Source: a virus
Taxonomy: Duplodnaviria > Heunggongvirae > Uroviricota > Caudoviricetes
IMG/VR virus record: IMGVR_UViG_2700989535_000004
Span: 1-9,780 of that record
DNA length: 9,780 nucleotides
Strand: one strand, 5' to 3'
Notes under the pieces: generated by a model
Told to the model about the DNA's origin: nothing
What the model saw: the letters and a program-made list of their open reading frames with translations, nothing else
Databases searched by the model: none
Made by a program: the position numbers and the translations under genes
Part shown: positions 1 to 9,780 of the stretch, one piece after another
Position numbering within the stretch: the stretch's first letter is position 1
Layout of the letters: each line of letters begins with the position of its first letter

Positions 1-564
1 TCAACGACTGCGCTTAGCGTGGCGCTCCCAGTTTTCTTGCTTCGCCTGCGCCGTTTTACGTAGTGCGACGTAACACGCCCCGCTGCCGCCATGATGCGGT
101 AGCGCAGTGCAATATGCCTGAACATCATCAAATTCGGTCAGCCAGCGCGCCACATAGCTGCGGACAATATTGGCATGCGATTTATCATCCCGTCCTTTGC
201 CATGAATAATCAGCACGTTACGCAAACCATCAGCCATGGCTTGTTGAATGAAACTGAACATCATTTTGCGGCACTCTTCCACCGGCTGGCGCAAAAGATT
301 CAGGCTCGCCTGTTGCGGATATTTACCACTGCGCAGCTTATCCAGCACCCCATGTTGCAACCCTTCCCGCCGAAACTCCAGCGGCTGACTTAGTGGGATG
401 ATGTCGAGAAATCCGGTGGTGAGGAAATTATCAAGCTGCAGCGTGTCGATACGCTGCGGCGCACGTTGGTTACGCGTTGGATGCCAGTGGACATCGGTAG
501 CACGTTTCAGCGGCTGGACATCTTCCATGGCGTCAAGAAACAGCGATTTGTCGTCAAGGTTCAT
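1..564 (-). CDS. smrA: Smr-domain protein (SmrA/YdaL-like putative DNA endonuclease); host gene flanking the island
   Basis: Complete 187-aa ORF on the minus strand with stop at 1-3. Smr-type core motif (..NVLIIHGKGRDDKS..). The 187-aa length and the MNLDDKSLFLDAMEDV N-terminus match my recollection of E. coli SmrA rather than SmrB; not verified by search. Confidence 0.7.
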   Translation of the reverse strand: MNLDDKSLFLDAMEDVQPLKRATDVHWHPTRNQRAPQRIDTLQLDNFLTTGFLDIIPLSQPLEFRREGLQHGVLDKLRSGKYPQQASLNLLRQPVEECRKMMFSFIQQAMADGLRNVLIIHGKGRDDKSHANIVRSYVARWLTEFDDVQAYCTALPHHGGSGACYVALRKTAQAKQENWERHAKRSR

Positions 565-782
565 GTTACATCCTCCCGCAATTAAGAGCGCGATATGATA
601 ACCAGACCGGGTCGGTCCAACAACGTATTACCCAAAATTCCAGTAATAAGTTCCAAATATTGCCGATATTTTAAGCAAAATGCTTATGCATGATTATTCA
701 TTCACGATATTTATAATTAAATGCGCATAACTTATTGAATTTAACCAACAAACATCGCTGCAAATAACGTTAAAAATCGCAA

Positions 783-806
783 ATTAACTACACCATTAAC
801 TACACC
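783..806. repeat. Perfect tandem direct repeat, 2 x 12 bp (ATTAACTACACC)
   Basis: Read directly: attaactacacc at 783-794 and again at 795-806, in the AT-rich intergenic region upstream of the Smr gene. Confidence 0.9.
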
Positions 807-1296
807 GTTCGGTGCACTGTATGCAACAATGCGGAACAAATAGACACAAGCGACGGGCTATACCGTTATCATTTTCCGGCTATCCGCCATGAAGCTGGTG
901 GATGATCACGGATAAACCGTTATGGAAGTCCCCATATCGGCATCATGCCCACCAGCGAGATTAGTTATCTGGTTGCTGATGGGAGGCTGACGAACCTCGA
1001 TGCTAGGGTGCGCAAAACTAGTGAGACCTTTTTTCTCTGCAACAGGCCCATAATTCGCGTTTTCTTTGTCTGCCGTAAGGTGGGGGATTTTTGGCGGATC
1101 CAGCAATGGCGCGGATTTTGTGATTTTTTATAGATAGACCTCATCTATCAATCCCGTGCACACCTTCCCAAAAAAAGTTTTCGAACCTGCGGCGATGTGA
1201 ACAAGGGTAGGCGGGCGGTCCCATAAGCAATGAGGTGTAGGGATTTCTATCCCCCTGGGGGTATTAAACACCACCCGATTTAAATACCGTCTTTTT

Positions 1297-1332
1297 TGTC
1301 ACTGTGTGTCACTCTCCGTCACGGTATGTCAC
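1297..1332. repeat. Four (T/C)GTCAC motifs at exact 10-bp phasing; candidate protein-binding array at the left island edge
   Basis: tgtcac at 1297-1302, tgtcac at 1307-1312, cgtcac at 1317-1322, tgtcac at 1327-1332. The array lies immediately downstream of the last island ORF (stop at 1339). Confidence 0.8.
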
Positions 1333-1338
1333 CACAAG

Positions 1339-1620
1339 TTAACGTCGTAACCGTTCCGGCTTCTTCCAGTGGTAAGTAATTTTTTCTTTCTCTTGGTACA
1401 TCTGCACGCGGCGACGGTACGACAACATCTCCAGAACTCTGGTGCGTATGTTGCGCATATCCACGCCGTTAAGCTCGATACCGTCACGGCGCATCACCTC
1501 AGCAACAACACGCACATAATTTTCAGCGGTCACGCTGTCCGGCTGCGTGGCCTGTTCGTCAGCCTGCTGGCTGATTCCGGTAACGCGGCGGATTAATCGC
1601 AGTATTTCGGCTTCTGTCAT
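1339..1620 (-). CDS. Hypothetical protein (93 aa), last gene of the packaging operon
   Basis: ATG at 1618-1620 preceded by TGGGGGCACA (G-rich SD, 4-nt spacer); 73-bp gap after the Nu1-like gene. No recognisable similarity to lambda gpA, gpW or gpFII. Confidence 0.5.
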   Translation of the reverse strand: MTEAEILRLIRRVTGISQQADEQATQPDSVTAENYVRVVAEVMRRDGIELNGVDMRNIRTRVLEMLSYRRRVQMYQEKEKITYHWKKPERLRR

Positions 1621-1693
1621 TGTGCCCCCATCGCTCTGATAGCCTGGTGTCGTCAGGTCCTTCCTGGAATTATGGCCCGTTACGGGGCGGCGG

Positions 1694-2236
1694 TTACTCG
1701 CCTTTGTTCTGTAGCAACTTCTCAGGCGCGCTTCCGGTAGTTTCCATCAGGTAATCAGCCAGTATCTGTGGCAGGTTTTCGTCAAGTCTTGCACATGCGT
1801 TACATGCTTTGGCTATTTCCCTTTTTAGTTCATCCAGCATATACGGCCTTATATCGGGAAAGCGCCTTTGCATTGTGAGCGGGAGGCTGTCCATGATTGA
1901 TGAAATCTGACTCGCTAGTTTTGAAATCGCGTAGATGCAAAACTTTGTATCAATCACCTCGCCGCGTTCGCGCTCGTTTTTAAGTTCCTGCGCTTCCGCC
2001 TGGGCCGTCATTAATCTGATTCTTACGCGTAAAAGTTCATCATCATCAATCTCGCCTTTGTCGTTTGTAAGCTGGTTAATTGCATTGTTAACCCTATTGT
2101 CTATCACGCTAGCAACATCATAAAACGCCTCACGGCCTTTACGCTCAACGGGAGTTACTCCCCACTTGTCGAACGCTGTCGCACTTACGCGGCAGCTTTG
2201 CGCCATAGTTTTTTTGTTCATCAGGTGCGATTTCAT
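1694..2236 (-). CDS. Terminase small subunit, lambda Nu1 family
   Basis: Translation aligns along its length with lambda Nu1 as recalled (e.g. RLMTAQAEAQELKNERERGEVIDTKFCIYAISKLASQISSIMDSLPLTMQRRFP vs lambda RLTRAQADAQELKNARDSAEVVETAFCTFVLSRIAGEIASILDGLPLSVQRRFP). About 180 aa like Nu1. Start taken at ATG 2234-2236 (SD GTGGGGA, 5-nt spacer); ATG 2219-2221 (MNKK.., aligning with lambda MEVNKK) and GTG 2246-2248 are alternatives. Sits 134 bp downstream of cosN. Confidence 0.85.
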   Translation of the reverse strand: MKSHLMNKKTMAQSCRVSATAFDKWGVTPVERKGREAFYDVASVIDNRVNNAINQLTNDKGEIDDDELLRVRIRLMTAQAEAQELKNERERGEVIDTKFCIYAISKLASQISSIMDSLPLTMQRRFPDIRPYMLDELKREIAKACNACARLDENLPQILADYLMETTGSAPEKLLQNKGE

Positions 2237-2261
2237 CAATATCCCCACTTAGTTAAGGTTT

Positions 2262-2420
2262 CAGGTTGGTGTGTTGGTGTTATCTTTCCCTTTTTATTCA
2301 TAGAGATAGAGCGAAAAACAAAACCACCACCACCAACCCGAAAAGGCTCATAAATAGCGAAAATCCGCAAGGTCGCCGCCCCGTAGCCTGCCGGATCGCC
2401 GGAAAGGACCCGCCAGCCAG
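2262..2420 (-). other. Lambda-type cos site: cosQ-like flank (2382-2420), cosN (2370-2381) and a divergent cosB-like region (2262-2369)
   Basis: The minus strand reads CTGGCTGGCGGGTCCTTTCCGGCGATCCGGCAGGCTACG|GGGCGGCGACCT|TGCGGATTTTCGCTATTTATGA. The 12-nt block is the lambda cohesive end, and both flanks match the lambda right-end and left-end sequences as I recall them with only a few substitutions. After TATTTATGA the sequence diverges; the cosB-like region carries GGTTGGTGTGTTGGTG (2265-2280) and its inverted partner CCACCACCACCAACC (2324-2338) around an AT-rich core. Confidence 0.8.
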
Positions 2421-2437
2421 AACGGGCCCTAATTTCA

Positions 2438-2821
2438 TCAACCAATCAGCTTATAGCGACCATCCCGTGCATTGCGACGTACACGCTCAATCTTGAGGCA
2501 TAGCGCCGCATCTGGCTTTTTGGGGACAGGTACGCGGCAATATTCAGAAGCTCGAGGAATATTGTTTATCCAGTCGATCACTTCACTTAAATACCAGGCT
2601 TTACGCCCTTCCGTAACCTGTACGCGTTCGGGGAACTCTCCACGAGCCTCAAGGTTTAGCAATGTGCGACGGCTAAGGGTAGTAAGTTCCATCACCTGAT
2701 TCATATCAACAAGGCGTTCACTTAAACGCATTTTGTCAGCAATAGCCTTTAATTCCTCTACTGCTGGATCCGGATACATCATTTCGGCAATTGGCTTAAG
2801 GTCATTGTAATGATTCTGCAT
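2438..2821 (-). CDS. AlpA/Xis-family (HTH_17-like) DNA-binding protein, 127 aa
   Basis: ATG at 2819-2821 with SD AAGGGGGA (4-nt spacer). Central segment MELTTLSRRTLLNLEARGEFPERVQVTEGRKAWYLSEVIDWI has the AlpA/excisionase-type HTH pattern, with about 40 extra residues at the N-terminus and about 40 at the C-terminus. The stop lies directly next to cosQ. Confidence 0.6.
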   Translation of the reverse strand: MQNHYNDLKPIAEMMYPDPAVEELKAIADKMRLSERLVDMNQVMELTTLSRRTLLNLEARGEFPERVQVTEGRKAWYLSEVIDWINNIPRASEYCRVPVPKKPDAALCLKIERVRRNARDGRYKLIG

Positions 2822-2832
2822 TGTATCCCCCT

Positions 2833-3174
2833 TTACACACGAGCCAGCGGCTGAACAGAAATACCTGAGCCAACAAACGCGGCAACCTTTGCCGACAGTT
2901 CTCTTACAGACTCAGGCCAGTTCAGAGCATCAACATTTAAAACACCTGTCTTATAAACCTGTGCCTGTGTTTTTTTCGCTGTGTCGATTTGTACAGCGGA
3001 AACATAAACCGCTTTGCCTGCGCTCGTTCCATCCCATACCACTAGCGCACCAGTTGCATCTTCCTGCATCAGTGGCGTAAACGCAGGTATTACCCCTTTA
3101 TTGGCTGAAAATATCCCCAGCGTAGTAACCAGTGCTTCAGTGCCAGACATGAGTTCAGTGTAATGAGTAGCCAT
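2833..3174 (-). CDS. Head decoration protein, lambda gpD family
   Basis: 113 aa. Shares with lambda gpD as recalled: TPLM, LV(V/A)WDGT, YK(T/S)G, WPE and AF(V/A)G(S/T)(G/A)IS in the same order and spacing. ATG at 3172-3174 with SD AAGGGGGAG; starts 9 nt after the capsid gene stop. Confidence 0.85.
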   Translation of the reverse strand: MATHYTELMSGTEALVTTLGIFSANKGVIPAFTPLMQEDATGALVVWDGTSAGKAVYVSAVQIDTAKKTQAQVYKTGVLNVDALNWPESVRELSAKVAAFVGSGISVQPLARV

Positions 3175-3183
3175 TGCTCCCCC

Positions 3184-4230
3184 TTAGCCAATGCGAACGG
3201 TAACAAAACGATTGATGCGGGCCGGTATTGGCTGTGGTGCAGAGTGCGTTTGTACGTACTCAATAGCCGGATCACCAGGCACAATATAGTTTTTCGGTGC
3301 AAGTTCGGCTTTAGTCAGCCCCATTCGGGTTAGCTCCGGATCCTGAATACCGCCATAGGCGACAATCCCCTGAAGAGCCGTATTGCCAAGCACCATCAAA
3401 TCAGGATCAAGGAAATGTTTTTCAGTTCCGTCCTCGTCGGTATAACGTCCGCTGTAAACAACAATCGCAACATCGCCCATATACCCTTTAAAACTCACCG
3501 AATCACCAAGGTCTTTAAGGGCCGTTTCCAGTTCGGAATTAGAACCACGGCGGGTATCCAGAGCCTCTTTTATCGCTCTGAATGAACGGTATTTCTTCCA
3601 TACATTACCGCCCATAATGATGATATTAGTGACGCCCTCACTAAATTCTGCGTAGCTCTCAATATCATCATTTGGATCAAAAGTTTCTTTATCCTTACCT
3701 GACCACTCAGCACCGCCAGACTGCGTGATAATATTTTGTGGTTTTATATTCCAGTCCAGTTCATAACGTTCAATACCATCGCCCTCAATGATATTTTTCC
3801 CCGTTGTGATTGCCTGAACAGCAAGCCATTCAATACGTGCACGTATAGCTTTAGCCTGATTTACAATCGCCTGTTTAACTTTAATATTACGCGCCCCAAA
3901 AGCATTGTATTGTTCAGGTGATACACCAGCAGGGCGCACAGCTAACTTATTTGGATCAATGCTGCTTTTCGGTTTCATATAGCCAGGGCGAATTGTTTTT
4001 GATTCGTATCCCTCATCTCGTGAAACTTTACTGCCCACCATAGGAGAGCAAAACGCCGCGATCGGGATATTTGGATCGTCGATCGTATCAAGAATAATGT
4101 CTCTCGATTCAAACATTACCGAGCGAGTGAAAAACAAACTGGTAAACAACGCATTTAATTTTTTTTGCACATCTTCAGCATTAGCCATCTGCACAAGCTG
4201 TGTAGGCGAATATAAATCAACCATACTCAT
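3184..4230 (-). CDS. Major capsid protein, lambda gpE family
   Basis: Strong colinear similarity to lambda gpE as recalled (ITQSGGAEWSGKDKETFDPNDDIESYA.., DTRRGSNSELETALKDLG, GDVAIVVYSG, MVLGNT, with an MSM start like gpE). 348 aa from ATG 4228-4230 (SD AAAGAGG directly upstream); ATG 4222-4224 has better SD spacing. The six-frame ORF runs on to 4311 but that extension has no gpE counterpart. Confidence 0.9.
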   Translation of the reverse strand: MSMVDLYSPTQLVQMANAEDVQKKLNALFTSLFFTRSVMFESRDIILDTIDDPNIPIAAFCSPMVGSKVSRDEGYESKTIRPGYMKPKSSIDPNKLAVRPAGVSPEQYNAFGARNIKVKQAIVNQAKAIRARIEWLAVQAITTGKNIIEGDGIERYELDWNIKPQNIITQSGGAEWSGKDKETFDPNDDIESYAEFSEGVTNIIIMGGNVWKKYRSFRAIKEALDTRRGSNSELETALKDLGDSVSFKGYMGDVAIVVYSGRYTDEDGTEKHFLDPDLMVLGNTALQGIVAYGGIQDPELTRMGLTKAELAPKNYIVPGDPAIEYVQTHSAPQPIPARINRFVTVRIG

Positions 4231-4393
4231 CCTCTTTACATTCATTACAAATAATTGTGAATATATTCTATTACCGATGTCTGCTATGCGAATACATGCA
4301 ACCAAGTGCAATGTTGTATAAAATATGCCGTGACAACTTCAGTGCTGATAATTCGTGTTAATGTATTTACTTCCTTTGGTCGGGATTTATGTA

Positions 4394-4435
4394 GCATGCC
4401 GGAAAATCTATTTTTTTCCGGCATCTTTTTGTTTG
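4394..4435 (+). terminator. Stem-loop (11-bp stem) with a T-tract on the plus strand; terminator-like element between the SSB and capsid genes
   Basis: ATGCCGGAAAA (4396-4406) pairs with TTTTCCGGCAT (4414-4424), followed by CTTTTTGTTTG. The U-tract geometry is on the plus strand; on the coding minus strand the hairpin is preceded by an A-tract instead. Lies 16 bp beyond the SSB stop. Confidence 0.4.
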
Positions 4436-4441
4436 CAGAAT

Positions 4442-4864
4442 TTAAAACGGTATATTATCGCCGTACGGATCATCATTCCCCGACTGTTGTTTTGCCCTGT
4501 TCAGTGCGTCAGTGGCCTGCCCCTGCTGACCTTTTTTGCCGCCCGGTCGCGCCGTTCGCGCACTGATTACGCTGTCTGCGATAACCTGCCAGCCCCGCCG
4601 CGTTTCGCCGTTCTGGCCTGTCCACTGGCTTACCTGCATGTTACCCGCCACGCTCAGGAGTTCACCCTTGCGGTGCTTTGCCAGTGCTTCGGCCTGTCTG
4701 CCAAACGCCAGGACGGATAACCACATCGTCGCCGTTCCGTCATCTGCCTGGCTGCACGGAAGTGGGACCGCCATACTCGCCATCGTCATTTGTGTACCCT
4801 TGCTGGTGGTCTTTAACTGCGGGTCAGCCACCAGCCGCCCGTAAGCCGCTATCTGTGCTGTCAT
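4442..4864 (-). CDS. ssb: Single-stranded DNA-binding protein (SSB)
   Basis: 140 aa with an OB-fold-like N-terminal region (IAAYGRLVADPQ.., WLSVLAFGRQAEALAKHRKGELLSVAGNMQVSQWTGQNGETRRGWQVIADSV), a Gly/Gln-rich linker and an acidic tail ending DNIPF (compare SSB DDDIPF). Its ATG (4862-4864) overlaps the upstream stop as ATGA. Confidence 0.85.
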   Translation of the reverse strand: MTAQIAAYGRLVADPQLKTTSKGTQMTMASMAVPLPCSQADDGTATMWLSVLAFGRQAEALAKHRKGELLSVAGNMQVSQWTGQNGETRRGWQVIADSVISARTARPGGKKGQQGQATDALNRAKQQSGNDDPYGDNIPF

Positions 4865-5112
4865 GCTGTCTGCTCTCCGGTTTTAACGTTGATGGTTGTC
4901 ACCTGTTCCGCTTCGGCAATCTCCCGTTCTGTCAGTGTGGCAAAATTTGCCGCCGCCGTGGTCATGAATGCGCTTATCAGTTCGGGATGCGCTTTCGCGT
5001 ATCCTTCTCCGGCGTGGCGGTCTATCGTTCTGATTGCCACCTTTAAGGCGTGCTCTGTCATGTCTAATGCGCGATATTTTGGTGCTGTTTTATCTCTGCT
5101 TTTTCTGGTCAT
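4861..5112 (-). CDS. Hypothetical protein (83 aa), translationally coupled to ssb
   Basis: ATG at 5110-5112 directly abutting the iteron region; G-rich sequence upstream; stop overlaps the ssb start. No family recognised. Confidence 0.5.
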   Translation of the reverse strand: MTRKSRDKTAPKYRALDMTEHALKVAIRTIDRHAGEGYAKAHPELISAFMTTAAANFATLTEREIAEAEQVTTINVKTGEQTA

Positions 5113-5113
5113 T

Positions 5114-5316
5114 CCCCACTACCCCCCACTTTTTCGCCTCACTTTTTAAGCTCCCCACATGATTTCCAACCTTGTTTTTTTGTGATTCTAATATGTTGTT
5201 TTTCAATGTGTTTTTTATTCCTCACTTTTGAGCCTATATACAGATTGAAAAGTGAGGGGCGCGGTTGCTTTTTGTTCAGTTCCTGCTATCCCCTCACTTT
5301 TGCGCCTCACTTTTTA
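5114..5316. repeat. Iteron array flanking an AT-rich core: putative replication origin
   Basis: CC(C/T)CACTTTT(T) copies at 5124-5134, 5137-5147, 5219-5229, 5292-5301 and 5304-5315; partial copies at 5114-5120 and 5153-5160; one inverted copy (AAAAGTGAGGGG, 5247-5258). A T-rich core lies at 5161-5217. The array starts at the stop codon of the replicase gene. Confidence 0.65.
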
Positions 5317-6729
5317 CAGTGGGCGCACATCATCACCGTCAATAGCGATAACGCCGTCTCTTTCCAGCTTGTACAGCCAGCGCCGGAAGTTTTTCATCTC
5401 ATACCCCAGCTTTTTCATATCATCGCGCAACAACGGGATAGTGCATTTATCGCCGCGCTGTGTGCGTGACCGGATACAGCCCCATAGTGCGGCGTGATTC
5501 TCCGTCTTGTTTCCGGCCTCCTCGATGCGCTCCAGTTCAACGGGTGGGCGCGGCTTATCCACAACCACCAGCGACGTGATTAACTCCTTGTCAGCGTCGG
5601 TAAAAAGCTCCACCACACGTAAATCATATGCAGCCTCTTTCAGTTCCTCCGCGTCCTTCATTTTGGTGCAGGAGATAACCAGGGCCTCACTGTCCGCGCC
5701 TTCGCGGCGGATCCGGTACTCAGCGTCCAGAGATGCACGAAATGCACTGGAACCACGCGCCCCTTTTGTTTCATCCTTGCCGGAATGGTGAACCACCAGC
5801 ACCGTGGCCCCTGTGCGTCGTTTCAGTTCGTCACATCCACGGATAAACGCCCCCATATCCCGCGCGTCATTTTCATCATTACCGCCAAAGCAACGCGCCA
5901 GCGTATCCAGAATAATCATGCGTACCGGTTTACCCGTTTCCCGTTCAACCTGGCGGGATGCGATAACCATTTCATCAACATCAAACTGGGCTGCAGGAAA
6001 AATCGGGCGGGTTACCAGGTACAGATTTTTCACCCGTTCATCATTAACGATTTCCCATGCCTTGATACGGCGGGGGACACCAATGCCACCTTCACCGACA
6101 ACATACATCACCGAACCATGCGCCACCCTGCGACCTCCCCAGTGGCGACCCGTGGCAACATGACACGCCCAGGAACACGCGAGGAACGATTTATAGGAAC
6201 CGCTCGCGCCGTATGTGCTGCACAATGAATTAGCCGGAATCACGCCCTTAACGACATAATCAAGCTGTGTGTCGTACCCTGCAGATCCAATGCTCATTGG
6301 TAGCGTGGTTTTTCGCTGACTGTATTGCTCGTCAGTAAGTATTTCCCCGCGCTCTGCCTGTTCGCGGATCCGTTGCAGGTAGTCGTGCCAGTTCTCCAGC
6401 TTCTGACTGTGCATTCCCTCAGGGTAATAATTCGCATCCCGTACACCTGCCGCCGCCAGCTTTTGCCCGATGGCATTAATATTTGACGGCTTGATGTGGC
6501 CTGCCTTGTACAGTCGGACACAATAGCGACCATCGTCGATAATTTTCAGGCCTGCCAGTTCGTCAAGCTGGCTGTCTCCCAGCCATACAGGCGGAACATT
6601 GTCGCCAGCAAGTCGCCCGTCCTGCTCCTGCCATTGTTTCGCGTGCGCCCAGGCATCACTACCCGCAAAAATAATGACTTCGGTCATTTTGTCGTAAGGC
6701 TGTTTTTTTAAGTTCGGTGCGCTTTTCAT
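5314..6729 (-). CDS. Replication initiator, primase/helicase type, with RepA-like AAA_25 ATPase core
   Basis: 471 aa. Walker A-like GASGSYKSFLA (Tyr where Gly is usual), Walker B-like RMIILDT and a VLVVHHSGKDE motif typical of RepA/AAA_25 helicases. The N-terminal 170 aa may be a degenerate Toprim (EVIIFAGSDAW..LKIIDDG) and the C-terminal 100 aa a DNA-binding domain. ATG at 6727-6729 (SD AGGGG, 6-nt spacer) overlaps the upstream stop as ATGA. Confidence 0.8.
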   Translation of the reverse strand: MKSAPNLKKQPYDKMTEVIIFAGSDAWAHAKQWQEQDGRLAGDNVPPVWLGDSQLDELAGLKIIDDGRYCVRLYKAGHIKPSNINAIGQKLAAAGVRDANYYPEGMHSQKLENWHDYLQRIREQAERGEILTDEQYSQRKTTLPMSIGSAGYDTQLDYVVKGVIPANSLCSTYGASGSYKSFLACSWACHVATGRHWGGRRVAHGSVMYVVGEGGIGVPRRIKAWEIVNDERVKNLYLVTRPIFPAAQFDVDEMVIASRQVERETGKPVRMIILDTLARCFGGNDENDARDMGAFIRGCDELKRRTGATVLVVHHSGKDETKGARGSSAFRASLDAEYRIRREGADSEALVISCTKMKDAEELKEAAYDLRVVELFTDADKELITSLVVVDKPRPPVELERIEEAGNKTENHAALWGCIRSRTQRGDKCTIPLLRDDMKKLGYEMKNFRRWLYKLERDGVIAIDGDDVRPL

Positions 6730-7025
6730 TTCTTGCCCCTGAATCCGTTAATCATGGTTTTCAGCTTCTGGATGTTTGCCCGTGCCCTGGCGTTGCTGGT
6801 GGGCACGTTATGCGGCGCGGTCTGTACCAGAGAAAAATCACACCGGAACTGATAAACAGGCATCACGCAATCATATTCGTAACCTTCACGGCGGTAGATT
6901 ACGCGCCGTTCTTCCACGCCCTTAATCATTACCGTGCCGCCGTACTGGTCGCGGTAAATATCACCGCGCGTAAATTTAGGGTGAGTGTTGCCACTGGCAG
7001 TTAAGCCAGAATATTTAAGTTTCAT
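6726..7025 (-). CDS. Hypothetical protein (99 aa)
   Basis: ATG at 7023-7025 with SD GGAGA upstream; stop overlaps the replicase start. Tight operon context; no family recognised. Confidence 0.5.
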   Translation of the reverse strand: MKLKYSGLTASGNTHPKFTRGDIYRDQYGGTVMIKGVEERRVIYRREGYEYDCVMPVYQFRCDFSLVQTAPHNVPTSNARARANIQKLKTMINGFRGKK

Positions 7026-7030
7026 TATTT

Positions 7031-7264
7031 TTATTCTCCGGTGTGCTGTTCTTTATATCTGTCGTGCAATAGATCTATTTCTTGCAGTTCCATTATTACA
7101 GGCTCAAGAAGCGTTATTAATGCCGTGGCAATTCTTGATTTTTGTTTGTCGCATTCATTGTCGCCAAGTGTTTCAAGCCATATGCGCAATATTTCCAGCA
7201 TGTTTTCACTGTGAGAAAGTGCAAGAAATGCGCGGTCTATTGTTTCGTGGTAAATATCACGCAT
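7031..7264 (-). CDS. Hypothetical protein (77 aa)
   Basis: ATG at 7262-7264 with SD GAGGA (about 8-nt spacer); 5-nt gap to the next gene. No family recognised. Confidence 0.45.
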   Translation of the reverse strand: MRDIYHETIDRAFLALSHSENMLEILRIWLETLGDNECDKQKSRIATALITLLEPVIMELQEIDLLHDRYKEQHTGE

Positions 7265-7490
7265 GGCTTACATCCTCAGGAAATTTTCTTCTGTAACGCG
7301 CCTCTGCCACATATTCCGCATAATCGGCGGCGATATTCAGTACATCAAGCCCCGTTGATTTATATTCTCTCGTGGAAAGTAAGAAAAAAGCCGCTCTAAT
7401 AAGCTCTGGCATTGACGAAAGCGCATCAGCCGCATCATCAGGAACGCCGGAAAATTCCTGTTTCAGGGAATTAAAACGATCATCACGCAT
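7257..7490 (-). CDS. Hypothetical protein (77 aa); possibly the C-terminal half of a frameshifted gene
   Basis: ATG at 7488-7490 lies 2 nt downstream of a G9 tract on the coding strand, which could serve as a G-rich SD. The frame is closed 6 codons upstream of the ATG. See finding on the homopolymer. Confidence 0.4.
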   Translation of the reverse strand: MRDDRFNSLKQEFSGVPDDAADALSSMPELIRAAFFLLSTREYKSTGLDVLNIAADYAEYVAEARYRRKFPEDVSHA

Positions 7491-7723
7491 AACCCCCCCC
7501 CATTTTCACAATCAGCAATCAGGATGGCTTTGGCCTCATTCAGCGCCATATCCGCACTAAGTTGCATAACCGCCAGCGAATGAGGAACGAAAGCCCCGGC
7601 ATATTCTGTTTCACTGGTAGCGTGCTTATGCGCCCTGTCCGCGATAACAGAAATATCAATCAGCGCATCAATCAGTGTTTTGATTGCTTCGGCGGCTGCG
7701 TCCGGACGGGTGTTATTGCACAT
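7463..7723 (-). CDS. Hypothetical protein (86 aa); possibly the N-terminal half of a frameshifted gene
   Basis: ATG at 7721-7723 with SD AGGGGGT (5-nt spacer). The reading frame passes through the G9 tract (encoding GGG) and stops 28 nt later, overlapping the next ORF. Confidence 0.4.
   Translation of the reverse strand: MCNNTRPDAAAEAIKTLIDALIDISVIADRAHKHATSETEYAGAFVPHSLAVMQLSADMALNEAKAILIADCENGGGLCVMIVLIP
7493..7501 (-). repeat. Homopolymeric tract: C9 on the plus strand, G9 on the coding strand
   Basis: Read directly (aaCCCCCCCCCatttt). Sits exactly at the junction of two overlapping out-of-frame ORFs. Confidence 0.95.
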
Positions 7724-7919
7724 GGTGCACCCCCTGACGAATACGGGCGGCGAATACCATCACGCAGCCAGCCGGTGATTGCTGACGGGCTTCCTGTTCG
7801 CTGGTGGCCTCAATGGTAATCACGCGCGGTTGTGCCGTACTCAGGGCGATAAAACGCCAGATGTATTTATTCAGGTTGTGCGAGTCCCGCCCTTGCGGGT
7901 GTATGGTATGATTTCTCAT
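7713..7919 (-). CDS. Hypothetical protein (68 aa), first gene of the minus-strand operon
   Basis: ATG at 7917-7919 with SD GAGG (5-nt spacer). The six-frame ORF extends to a TTG at 8009, but that extension would cover the leader hairpin and has no RBS. Confidence 0.4.
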   Translation of the reverse strand: MRNHTIHPQGRDSHNLNKYIWRFIALSTAQPRVITIEATSEQEARQQSPAGCVMVFAARIRQGVHHVQ

Positions 7920-8017
7920 AGCAGCCTCGATAATCTTGCTATCGTTGGTGGTTAGACGCCCCGTATGTGTTTCCGGCACTGCGGGGCGTTGCTCTTTGTA
8001 TTTCAACAATTCTTTTG

Positions 8018-8096
8018 GTGTGTTTCATGTTATGAGCGCATGAAACACACGTCAAGGCTTTTTGTATTTCTTTTTTTGTGTATACTGAAACACACC
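8018..8096. promoter_or_regulatory. Divergent promoter/operator region: perfect 12-bp inverted repeat overlapping a minus-strand sigma70-like promoter, plus a third half-site at the plus-strand promoter
   Basis: GTGTGTTTCATG (8018-8029), 9-bp spacer, CATGAAACACAC (8039-8050). Minus-strand promoter: -35 TTGACG (revcomp of 8050-8055), 17-bp spacer, -10 TAACAT (revcomp of 8027-8032). Third half-site TGAAACACAC at 8086-8095 just downstream of a plus-strand -10-like TATACT (8081-8086). A fourth GTGTTTC lies at 7967-7973 inside a leader hairpin (ACGCCCCG 7956-7963 / CGGGGCGT 7982-7989). Confidence 0.5.
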
Positions 8097-8116
8097 GATG
8101 ATTAGGAGTTTCAGAA

Positions 8117-8422
8117 ATGGCAACGGCTAACAAAAACGCAAAATCACAACTGACAACTGTCAGAGTCCCACTAGATGTTATGCAAGGGATGGAATCCGTT
8201 AAGCTGGACGGCGAAAGCAATGCCGGATTTATCGTAACCGCCATGCGCGGAGAAATAGCCCGCCGCCAAGCAGAAGGCAGCGGAGAAAATCCCCTTGTGT
8301 CGTCACTGGATGCCCTGGCTAAGGTCGAACAAATCGGCATCAAAGCAGCGGAAGAAATCGGGCAGCTTGTCACCGTTGCACGCGAAGAACTCCAGCGTCG
8401 CAAGACCAAAGAACCAGAGTAA
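8117..8422 (+). CDS. Putative ribbon-helix-helix (RHH) DNA-binding protein, 101 aa; candidate island repressor
   Basis: Strong SD (TAGGAG, 8-nt spacer). N-terminal segment QLTTVRVPLDVMQGMESVKLDGESNAGFIVTAMRGEIARR fits a beta-strand/helix/helix RHH pattern. Operator-like repeats lie just upstream and an intrinsic terminator downstream on the same strand. Composition is A/E/K-rich, unlike the Ser/Arg/Cys-rich opposite-strand reading. Confidence 0.6.
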   Translation: MATANKNAKSQLTTVRVPLDVMQGMESVKLDGESNAGFIVTAMRGEIARRQAEGSGENPLVSSLDALAKVEQIGIKAAEEIGQLVTVAREELQRRKTKEPE

Positions 8423-8479
8423 TCACCATCAGCGCCGTGGTGTAAGGTATTACGGCGCATTGCTATGCAGGACAACACA

Positions 8480-8653
8480 ATGACCGATAAAGAATTGACC
8501 AAAACATTATCACCGGCACGGAAAAGACGGCGCAGAAAGATAGAGCATGAATCAGAAAGATTCGCGCCATGTGCTTTTGCTCTTGAGAAATTCCTTAAAG
8601 AGCACAGGAAAAAGCTCTCGTTGCAAACCTTGGAACGAACCAAATCTGACTGA
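8480..8653 (+). CDS. Small basic protein (57 aa), co-transcribed with the RHH gene
   Basis: ATG at 8480 with AGGA 7 nt upstream; the ORF-track start at 8465 has no SD. Contains an RKRRRRK block. Followed 80 bp later by an intrinsic terminator. Confidence 0.4.
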   Translation: MTDKELTKTLSPARKRRRRKIEHESERFAPCAFALEKFLKEHRKKLSLQTLERTKSD

Positions 8654-8732
8654 TCACATTGCCCACCAGCCGCAAATGTGGCATTGTTGGTGATGCTCAT
8701 GCGTTGGGGATAACGTGTAGCTTGTGTCGAGG

Positions 8733-8761
8733 GGCCACCGTAGCGGGTGGCCTTTGTTTTG
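8733..8761 (+). terminator. Rho-independent terminator of the plus-strand cassette
   Basis: GGCCACC (8733-8739), loop gtagcg, GGTGGCC (8746-8752), then TTTGTTTTG. The U-tract is on the plus strand only. Confidence 0.6.
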
Positions 8762-8763
8762 CC

Positions 8764-9129
8764 TGTTATCCGGCAATTGTGGCGCTTCGCCACACGGTTG
8801 ATATAATCCCACTGCTCAGATTCATTTTTTGCGCAGTAGGTTAATTGTTCACAAAGGCGCTCCGGCAACGGGGCGCTTTTTGTTTTTATTAGTTTGTAGA
8901 AACCTGACTCAGAGATAATGCTCATATTCTGATTGCCGTCAGGGGTGTAAGTTAAATTTACTCCCTTTTTATCATCAAACATCTGCAACGCTCTGGCGTT
9001 AACAATATTGGTTTCACTCCCTCCAGTAAGGCCGGAAATAACCGGAATAATTTCGGCAAAATTTTGCAGATTCTGTTTTTCAGGACGAACGAAGCCCCGC
9101 CCTTGTTCGGGAGAATATCCAGTATTCAT
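8764..9129 (-). CDS. Hypothetical protein with a possible Bro-N-like motif; 3' boundary undefined, possibly a truncated remnant
   Basis: ATG at 9127-9129 with only a weak SD. The segment PDGNQNMSIISESGFYKLIKTKSAP resembles the Bro-N core (GGKQ.MT.INESGLYSLI..S.KP), but the N-terminal Bro-N signature is not evident. The ORF formally continues without a stop to 7939, across the plus-strand terminator, cassette and promoter region; I list only the 5' part, ended at an arbitrary in-frame position. Confidence 0.3.
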
Positions 9130-9181
9130 GGTTAGATCTCTGTATTAGTGGATGGGTGGCGGCTGTGTGCCGCCAGCCTGA

Positions 9182-9370
9182 TTAGTGAACTGCCTCGCAG
9201 CTTTCCTTCCATGCCAGAACTTCGGATAAAGACCAGCCAACGGAACGACCGCCGAGCTTACGCCGTGATGGGAATTGTCCGGTTTTTTCCAGGCGGTACC
9301 GACATGAACGGCTCAGGCCTGTAAGTTGCTGACATTCTTTTTCACGTATAAAGCGATCTGTGCTTAACAC
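9182..9370 (-). CDS. alpA: AlpA-family transcriptional regulator / excision-associated HTH protein (62 aa)
   Basis: DRFIREKECQQLTGLSRSCRYRLEKTGQFPSRRKLGGRSVGWSLSEVLAWKE matches the AlpA/Vis-type HTH. Start taken at GTG 9368-9370, preceded by SD AAGGGGGA (3-nt spacer); the 118-aa ORF-track start at 9538 has no comparable RBS. Confidence 0.75.
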   Translation of the reverse strand: MLSTDRFIREKECQQLTGLSRSCRYRLEKTGQFPSRRKLGGRSVGWSLSEVLAWKESCEAVH

Positions 9371-9403
9371 AATTCCCCCTTTGATATTTCTTAAAGAGTT
9401 ATT

Positions 9404-9450
9404 TGGTGTCCTATTGTGTTGTGGTGCGTCGGATTGTGTCAGGGTGTTTA
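9404..9450. repeat. Five (T/G)GTGT(C/T)-type motifs at 10-bp phasing upstream of alpA
   Basis: TGGTGTC 9404-9410, TTGTGTT 9414-9420, GGTGCGTC 9423-9430, TTGTGTC 9434-9440, GGTGTTT 9444-9450. Confidence 0.7.
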
Positions 9451-9664
9451 TGGAATGGCAAACACTGGCGGCGGTCATTTTACAGAAGTGTGGTAATGAG
9501 AATAAAAACTCTTTTAATTCATTGTGGTGCAAAGGCATAAAATTCTGTTTTTACGCCTTTTTTACATGTTTTTAAGAGTGATTCGCCAATGTACAAAAAG
9601 CCAGTAAAACGACTGAAAATCAACTTTTTAGGGTGTCAGTCAGATGTTAATCAAGTTTGTTCCA

Positions 9665-9715
9665 GATTGTTCGCCGTTGTTCGTCGTGGTGTCTCGTTGT
9701 TTCACGTTGTGTCAG
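9665..9715. repeat. Five tandem 10-bp units ending in (C)GTTGT, with TTGTGTCAG
   Basis: Motifs (G/C)(A/G)T(T/G)GT at 9665, 9675, 9685, 9695 and 9705. The 9-mer TTGTGTCAG occurs at 9707-9715 and at 9434-9442; GGTGTCAG at 9632-9639. Confidence 0.7.
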
Positions 9716-9780
9716 TTCTAAAAAATCGCAAAAAAAATTATATTTCTCTGGCTATTGGCAGTGTGGTTACGTTTTTGTGA

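Follow-up and report, generated by a model that had tools for sequence, protein, structure and literature searches.

A capsid gene pair in a chromosomal island

The window analysed here, meaning the whole stretch of 9,780 nucleotides (IMG/VR record IMGVR_UViG_2700989535_000004, positions 1 to 9,780), is identical to positions 680498-690276 of the Escherichia coli KSC1031 chromosome (NZ_CP019560.1). It holds nearly all of a 10,206-bp phage-inducible chromosomal island (PICI), a phage satellite whose late module encodes a lambda gpE-type major capsid protein (MCP; 346 residues, 3184..4224, minus strand) followed by a gpD/SHP-type head decoration protein (Dec; 113 residues, 2833..3174, minus strand). 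The feature itself is already known. The PICI capsid/decoration pair was published in 2018, when c1499 of EcCICFT073, the prototype E. coli island, was named as a capsid protein, c1500 as a head decoration protein, and the analogy with the SaPIbov5 protein Ccm was invoked (Fillol-Salom et al., PMC6092414). In the literature after 2019, we found no paper that gives the PICI MCP-Dec pair a function.

Identity and predicted fold of the two proteins

The RefSeq start of the MCP gene is the ATG at 4224, 7 nt past an AGAGGA Shine-Dalgarno motif. Position 4230, used in the first-pass annotation of this DNA, is an ATG two codons upstream, and the 375-residue open reading frame (ORF) from a TTG at 4311 is a mechanical maximum only. 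The protein scores 144 bits (E = 7e-42; cut-off 22.9) with Pfam PF03864 (Phage_cap_E), residues 40-372 of the 375-residue ORF aligning with profile positions 3-327 of 329, and it also matches phrog_29. It is colinear with lambda gpE (residues 7-345 against 6-340; phmmer E = 2e-77), with an identity of 41.8% over residues 1-346. The top match in the PDB (E = 3e-121) is 3BQW, a crystal structure from E. coli CFT073 titled 'putative capsid protein of prophage'. Foldseek comparison of the AlphaFold2 (AF2) model (pLDDT 79.5, pTM 0.81) yielded template modelling (TM) scores of 0.85-0.88 with the lambda gpE structures 7SJ5 and 7VI9 and 0.90 with 3BQW. By sequence and predicted fold, the window MCP is a full-length gpE-type major capsid protein of the HK97 fold.

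Dec scores 56.2 bits against Pfam PF02924 (cut-off 29.1) and matches the SHP of phage 21 (E = 3e-16) and lambda gpD (E = 1.6e-12), the latter with 40% identity over 78 residues. Its AF2 model (pLDDT 80.7) gives TM scores of 0.81-0.90 with the SHP and gpD structures 1TD0, 1C5E and 8XQB, and profile and predicted fold together identify it as a gpD/SHP head decoration protein. Protein search and AF2 structure comparison thus bear out the initial claim that the island encodes full-length homologues of both gpE and gpD. The order of the two genes, E then D, is the reverse of that in lambda (D at 5747-6079, E at 6135-7160), and comparison with the lambda coordinates confirmed this inversion, which had also been noted at first reading.

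Identity between the PICI-clade and lambda-like consensus sequences varies along the MCP. It lies at 0.2-0.5 over residues 1-160, which from the AF2 secondary structure and general knowledge of the HK97 fold we take to be the N-arm, E-loop and spine helix, at 0.6-0.9 over residues 161-320, and at 0.35 at the C-terminus (321-340). The N-terminal arm of Dec, about 25 residues long, is conserved among PICIs and unlike that of gpD. In published structures of the lambda capsid, the N-terminus of gpD pairs with the E-loop and N-arm of gpE. The divergence of MCP and Dec therefore sits at the expected contact sites, which fits a cognate pair and would imply that some lattice sites consist of island MCP.

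Residue Y313 of the MCP (about window 3286-3288) aligns with W308 of lambda gpE. This position is Tyr in nine of nine sequences of the window subclade, Trp in 14 of 14 lambda-like proteins and mixed in the CFT073 subclade. PDB entry 7SJ5 is a gpE W308A mutant; the mutant is reportedly assembly-defective, and W308 is said to have a role in capsomer assembly.

The island carries no portal, protease or large terminase gene

The left core of the attachment (att) site is a 26-nt exact direct repeat, AATTAACTACACCATTAACTACACCG, at 782..807. The second copy is found 10,206 bp further right, just past the window edge (positions 8782 and 18988 in our locus L001), and these repeats set the span of the island. 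Host smrA (1-564) forms the left flank. Past the right edge of the window the tyrosine integrase, which starts at about 9737 and runs off the window, is the sole further island gene, and host abgR comes next; further head genes were looked for on this side, and only these two genes were found. Throughout the island, mapped to its right end, there is no portal, protease/scaffold, large terminase (TerL) or head-tail connector gene, and the Pfam and PHROG matches of its proteins include no Sid/Cpm-like or scaffold-like gene. What the first-pass annotation had said of portal, protease, scaffold and TerL from the window alone thus holds for the entire element. Its broader wording, that none of the other head genes are present, stands as well, yet packaging functions are there, in the form of a lambda-type cos and a Nu1-type small terminase.

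The anatomy is that described for Gram-negative PICIs (Fillol-Salom 2018), with int and alpA at one end, rep with a probable ori downstream, and co-oriented genes, nearly all of them on the minus strand. The size of 10,206 bp (about 10-15 kb expected), the flanking att repeats and the absence of lysis and tail genes agree with this. The island is a classical Gram-negative PICI, which bears out its earlier description as a satellite, and the MCP-Dec pair is part of the PICI late module. Gaps of only 9 nt between MCP and Dec and 11 nt between Dec and the next gene, which encodes an AlpA-like helix-turn-helix (HTH) protein of 127 residues (2438..2821, minus strand), indicate that the three genes are probably co-transcribed. 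The HTH gene stays beside the MCP-Dec pair in relatives.

Packaging functions

An exact copy of the 12-nt lambda cosN, GGGCGGCGACCT, lies at 2370-2381 on the minus strand, 134 nt upstream of the terS start; the chance expectation for an exact 12-mer in 2 x 9.8 kb is about 0.001. It sits in a block of about 65 nt, the lambda-type cos core (2347..2412, minus strand), that almost matches lambda cosQ-cosN. Toward the terS start, in the cosB region, the similarity to lambda is gone. The small terminase itself (TerS; 180 residues, 1694..2236, minus strand) is of the Nu1 type and shares 37% identity with lambda Nu1 along its full length, the C-terminal half being best conserved and the N-terminal DNA-binding domain only weakly so. 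In Nu1, it is the C-terminal half that binds gpA. Given its own cos and Nu1-type TerS, the island most likely steers the helper's TerL to the island cos. The late module ends with a conserved 93-residue gene (phrog_1561; 1339..1620, minus strand).

BLASTP gave no alignment between TerS and RppA, the 144-residue product of c1503 that EcCICFT073 encodes in the corresponding place, and the 127-residue AlpA-like protein shows no similarity to c1501, the small gene that follows Dec in EcCICFT073. Because both comparisons were blank, the packaging module is not of the Rpp type. The kind of packaging-specificity gene may go with the MCP subclade, TerS accompanying the window subclade and Rpp accompanying the CFT073 and Lelliottia subclade. 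EcCICFT073 has two copies of cosN (L003, 7559 on the plus strand and 8309 on the minus strand) and its helper prophage has one (L003, 44745).

Packaging of cos multimers is textbook lambda biology. Four units of the island add up to 40,824 bp, or 84% of lambda, inside the range of 78-105%. The premise that an island of about 10 kb cannot fill a lambda head therefore fails, because the exact cosN, the cosQ-like block and the island's own TerS allow concatemers to be packaged. In a lambda lysogen carrying EcCICFT073, all packaged DNA was indeed phage-sized (PMC6092414). Across the reference Gram-negative PICIs, a capsid gene is present in 21 of 29 islands and dispensable for transfer, and phage-length concatemers are packaged (PMC10111431).

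Conservation, selection and a satellite clade

By megablast, the MCP-Dec pair is present in 397 of 5,426 complete E. coli genomes, and a scan of IMG/VR gave 80 loci with an MCP 98-100% identical to that of the window. Intactness and the ratio of nonsynonymous to synonymous polymorphism (pN/pS) were assessed on these 80 loci together with three E. coli loci. Copies were intact and of identical length for the MCP in 83 of 83 cases and for Dec in 82 of 83. The pN/pS was 0.061 for the MCP (43 alleles; 85 polymorphic codons synonymous-only versus 29 with a replacement) and 0.134 for Dec (19 alleles). Both capsid genes are under strong purifying selection.

A single-protein contig scan for homologues gave four further loci, in Kluyvera, Superficieibacter, Cedecea and Kosakonia. 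Their proteins are 79-86% identical although synonymous sites are saturated, and length and E-then-D order are kept across the genera. Where it could be computed, the between-genus dN/dS was 0.02-0.11, but saturation of dS made it mostly unusable, and pN/pS among close alleles was used instead for this reason.

Among 50,697 phage genomes, we found no MCP with at least 60% identity to that of the window, lambda being the best at 41.8%; nor did any phage among the matches listed (about the 30 best per search) have an MCP of this clade or the E-then-D order. Homologues in protein databases are bimodal, with a clade at 51% identity or more followed by lambda-like MCPs at 38-44%. Every context sampled from the former (E. 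coli, Edwardsiella, Lelliottia, Serratia, Salmonella, Kluyvera, Superficieibacter, Cedecea and Kosakonia) showed a PICI backbone with MCP followed by Dec. Judged by these contexts, the MCP-Dec clade is limited to satellites, and its identity to phage and helper MCPs nowhere exceeds 45%.

Some copies depart from this uniform picture. Another E. coli strain has, at this chromosomal site (L002:11999-13390), a Dec 96% and an MCP 83% identical to those of the window, with a primase as replicase in place of RepA, which points to recombination breakpoints within the MCP gene and between modules. In one IMG/VR copy (L013:6608-6801), Dec breaks off at nt 194 and both the HTH and the TerS gene are missing. 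There are also rare MCP-Dec fusion proteins of 463 and 470 residues and a 194-residue TerS-Dec hybrid annotated as small terminase (P0005, P0076, P0146).

Relatives embedded in prophages

Of the 80 IMG/VR loci, 57 lie inside lambda-like head gene clusters, as do two of the four loci from other genera and two of three additionally sampled E. coli copies (L010-L012), which were counted apart from the chromosomal window island and L002. The helper's E gene is split by the island in Cedecea (L007), Kosakonia (L008), E. coli 550 (L011) and E. coli 2015C-4136CT1 (L012), where the interrupted prophages are lambda-like, with B, C, D, E, FI and FII; in most of the 57 IMG/VR head-cluster loci, E is cut at codon 80-82 or thereabouts. 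A second class of insertion uses another late-gene site and leaves E intact, and the Edwardsiella relative (L093) interrupts the portal gene. The window island is flanked by host smrA and abgR and thus does not count among the helper-embedded PICIs (HE-PICIs), a class to which L007, L008, L011, L012 and L093 do belong.

The presence of near-identical copies within lambda-like head gene clusters indicates helpers with lambda-type heads, and from these embedded relatives we infer that lambda-like phages are what the window PICI parasitises. The window MCP is just 41-45% identical to the helper E genes of the embedded relatives, which speaks against its recent acquisition from the helper and against homogenisation between the two.

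The PICI of Lelliottia sp. SL45 at fis (L095:10001-13337) encodes an MCP 51% identical to that of the window together with Dec. It also carries a full-length gpC-like S49 protease that is 50% identical to lambda C, including the Nu3 region, as well as an Rpp homologue (39% identical to RppA) and a head-closure (Hc1-like) gene near alpA. In gene content this island stands between classical PICIs and capsid-forming PICIs (cf-PICIs), and its protease indicates that at least some members of the satellite lineage carry further genes of procapsid assembly.

Other relatives vary in what surrounds the pair. A lambda gpI-like tail assembly gene lies past MCP, Dec and HTH in three of them (L096:12122-12748, L100:10367-10975 and L012:9918-10526). 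Two Salmonella enterica PICIs (L098 and L099) sit at two different places within P2-like prophages, where their neighbours are either baseplate and tail genes or gpO/gpN and portal genes, and in both a protein of 521-534 residues (phrog_3654) follows. Defence-type cargo of the abortive-infection family or with a TIR domain is found at the ends of relatives (L011:8411-9172 and 16747-17622, L012:8164-8925, L100:11326-12090), and none is recognisable in the window island.

Remaining features of the island

An AlpA regulator (9181-9369, minus strand) adjoins the integrase. Small genes, including one Icd-like gene, lie between it and the gene for a DUF4222 protein (6726-7025). The replication module (4442..6729, minus strand) comprises a RepA-family helicase (5314-6729), an 83-residue gene (4861-5112) and a single-stranded DNA-binding protein (SSB; 4442-4864), all on the minus strand. 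Directly downstream of the helicase gene, a 25-nt iteron-like direct repeat, CCYCACTTTTNCGCCTCACTTTTTA, occurs at 5124-5148 and 5292-5316, and these repeats beside rep are the probable ori. A hairpin with an 11-bp stem (4396..4424) between the SSB and MCP genes may mark where the replication module ends and the late module begins. A sigma-70-like promoter, TTCGCA-16-TAGAAT, was found just upstream of the MCP gene at 4265..4292 on the minus strand, as a consensus match only.

About 760 bp between a YlcI-like gene and alpA (8422-9180) have no annotated gene and are covered only by an implausible 396-residue minus-strand ORF (7939-9129) that overlaps the YlcI gene. In PICI relatives, P4-like and PICI immunity RNAs have been reported from the zone near alpA (PMC10111431). 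Rfam gave no matches at gathering thresholds over the whole window, nor at E<=1 over 7900-9780, and the window contains no tRNA genes.

What the capsid proteins may do

MCP and Dec are probably working shell and cement subunits. Overall, we favour a reading, to which we would give a probability of roughly 40%, in which they build lambda-sized, concatemer-filled heads on the portal, scaffold and protease of the helper and can be replaced by the helper's gpE and gpD. The island MCP would polymerise on the helper's portal and scaffold-protease initiator, and the co-diverged Dec would cement the resulting lattice. The helper's TerL, guided to the island cos by the island TerS, would then package concatemers of about four units into heads of lambda size, so that a small capsid would not be needed. 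Helper gpE and gpD would be able to replace MCP and Dec, and such substitution would explain why deletion of the homologues has had no phenotype in the laboratory. The first-pass annotation had likewise placed the island's own shell and decoration subunits in helper-built procapsids; we adopt this part as plausible, and set aside the smaller capsids that it attached to it.

Several points weigh against this reading. The incorporation of MCP and Dec into particles, their compatibility with the helper's scaffold and the size of the head are all things that we infer. When c1499 or c1500 was deleted, lambda plaquing was not restored and transfer by the resident helper was unaffected (PMC6092414), which means that any contribution of the pair is redundant or conditional. 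The island has no scaffold or protease, so that an MCP 42% identical to gpE has to be assumed compatible with the helper's Nu3, C and B. A private shell of the same size also offers no obvious selfish advantage. The IMG/VR sample, moreover, is biased toward prophage-like regions, and the Salmonella enterica PICIs L098 and L099, which carry an MCP 58% identical to that of the window and Dec, occur inside P2-like prophages with an MCP and scaffold unrelated to the gpE type.

The first-pass annotation proposed that the pair redirects capsid size in the manner of Ccm, the island MCP together with Dec shifting helper procapsids to a smaller triangulation (T) number so that the helper is inhibited and only island DNA fits. 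A changed capsid is the easiest justification for a divergent private MCP under strong purifying selection, and there are satellite precedents, Ccm itself and PmCI172 with its MCP homologue and small capsids (PMC6092414, PMC6893505). By our own volume-scaling estimate, about 21 kb would fit a T=4 lambda-type shell, near two units of the island (20.4 kb), and the window allele, only 55% identical to the c1499 that was tested, is paired with TerS and not Rpp. We nevertheless think this explanation unlikely. Its premise is unnecessary, as four-unit cos concatemers fit a lambda head, and the island has no scaffold-like or Sid/Cpm-like gene. The homologues c1499 (55% identity to the window MCP) and c1500 (54% to Dec) tested negative: packaged DNA was phage-sized only, their deletion altered neither plaquing nor transfer by the native helper (PMC6092414), and EcCICFT073 goes into normal-sized capsids with lambda despite its capsid homologue, as noted in the review by Dokland (PMC6893505). 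When EcCICFT073 genes downstream of ori were expressed singly, c1503 (RppA) was the sole inhibitor of lambda, and its deletion restored plaquing (PMC6739421). For this allele, a capsid-redirection mechanism is therefore unsupported: it rests on a false premise, and the homologues gave negative results when tested. The same experiments tell against the idea that MCP and Dec poison the assembly of lambdoid capsids or act on capsid-sensing immune or regulatory systems, since post-ori genes other than c1503 did not inhibit lambda (PMC6739421) and deleting c1499 or c1500 brought no relief (PMC6092414). Interference with the helper is typical of PICIs, MCP residues 161-320 are close enough to their lambda-like counterparts (consensus identity 0.6-0.9) that mixed capsomers might form, and relatives bear TIR and Abi defence cargo, but a poison subunit needs no co-evolving decoration protein, and we hold this explanation to be very unlikely.

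A back-up role, in which the pair does nothing specialised and replaces or supplements the helper's gpE and gpD when head genes are interrupted or late expression is depressed, was proposed in PMC10111431. It would account for dispensability in the laboratory and draws on the 57 of 80 near-identical copies that lie in lambda-like head clusters and mostly split E. The pair is also found, however, in the portal-gene island L093, in islands at the late site that leaves E intact and in chromosomal islands, and these islands bear no copy of the particular gene that they interrupt. A private Dec is retained despite an intact helper D, and the MCP, at 41-45% identity to helper E, bears no sign of recapture or homogenisation; we regard the proposal as improbable. 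That the pair is a non-functional relic, left over from a decayed prophage head cluster or from a larger capsid-forming island, is scarcely credible. In its favour, the island has just two of some ten head genes, the late zones of PICIs are dynamic and at times hold captured phage clusters (PMC10111431), and relatives carry tail assembly, head closure and protease genes. Against this, we rejected a degraded prophage, which would have refuted the first-pass annotation, on the grounds of the intact copies (83 of 83 MCP, 82 of 83 Dec), selection (pN/pS of 0.06 and 0.13) and the clean att ends of the island, and length and E-then-D order are kept across genera despite saturated synonymous sites. 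A phage with an MCP of this clade or with this gene order is likewise missing from the matches listed for the 50,697 phage genomes.

Returning to the favoured reading of shell and cement subunits on helper machinery, one extension of it deserves mention, although we consider it doubtful. 'Shell-only' PICIs might stand between capsid-stealing PICIs and cf-PICIs, building a private MCP/Dec shell on the portal, scaffold and protease of a natural lambda-like helper, maybe with a smaller T number and one or two units inside. The published negative results would then reflect a non-native helper or marked constructs.

Should the pair prove to build or modify capsids, it would represent a third route of capsid piracy, in which the satellite's shell is swapped in while the helper's portal and motor are kept. 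The prominence of the MCP gene, the most frequent late gene of Gram-negative PICIs (21 of the 29 reference islands, PMC10111431), would then have an explanation as well. The finding re-discovers a published feature, and the function of the pair is an acknowledged minor question in the field. What is new here is quantitative, namely the strong purifying selection, the satellite-only clade, the helpers with lambda-type heads and the pairing with a Nu1-type TerS and cos in place of Rpp.

Comparison with known systems

The overall order of EcCICFT073 is that of the window island, with rep/SSB, MCP, Dec, a small gene, cos, a packaging-specificity gene and a 93-residue gene. In EcCICFT073 (L003), the MCP gene lies at 5669-6724 and Dec at 6736-7071, followed by the small gene, cosN, RppA, the 93-residue gene and phoQ. 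The structure of c1499 is PDB 3BQW, whose fold is shared with the window MCP (TM 0.90); the last 93-residue gene is 86% identical in the two islands, and both have a lambda-type cosN. The islands differ in their MCP (55% identity) and Dec (54%), in the presence of RppA in the one and a Nu1-type TerS in the other, and in the small gene after Dec, c1501 being unrelated to the window HTH gene. They also differ in the replicase (a primase in EcCICFT073, the RepA helicase in the window) and in their site, near phoQ as opposed to between smrA and abgR.

A closer match is found in the 11capE-type HE-PICIs (PMC10111431). In 80 IMG/VR loci taken to be of this type, the MCP is 98-100% and Dec and the AlpA-like regulator are 94-100% identical to those of the window, and the module order and the lambda-like helpers are the same. 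The window island differs from these in its chromosomal position between smrA and abgR and in its integrase, which is only 40-45% identical to theirs.

The SaPIbov5 protein Ccm is, like the window MCP, a satellite-encoded HK97-fold homologue of a helper MCP in a cos-packaged PICI. It is 23% identical to the capsid protein of its helper and redirects phi12 to small capsids, and its deletion raises helper titres 10^6-10^7-fold (PMC6893505), whereas deletions of the E. coli homologues had no phenotype (PMC6092414). Beyond the common fold, Ccm and the window MCP are unrelated. To our knowledge, Ccm has no partner decoration protein.

The cf-PICIs, such as EcCIEDL933 (bioRxiv 10.1101/2022.09.08.507074), share the int, alpA and rep backbone and a capsid protein of their own with the window island. 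They differ in encoding portal, protease, head-tail connectors, HNH, TerS and TerL as well, and in producing small capsids themselves; of these genes, the window island has TerS only. We rejected assignment to this class, as the defining portal, protease, connectors and TerL are absent from the whole mapped island.

Lambda gpE and gpD and the SHP of phage 21 belong to the same Pfam families as the window pair and resemble it in full-length colinearity and predicted folds. Lambda differs in sequence (about 42% identity for gpE and 40% for gpD), in the D-then-E order and in the neighbouring Nu3, C, B, W and A genes, and both the N-terminal half of the window MCP and the N-terminal arm of Dec have diverged from it. 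A final parallel is offered by P4, which encodes no MCP and whose Psu and Sid have no sequence relationship to gpD or gpE. Here too, as would be the case for the window Dec, the satellite supplies a decoration or stabilisation protein of its own for a helper-derived head.

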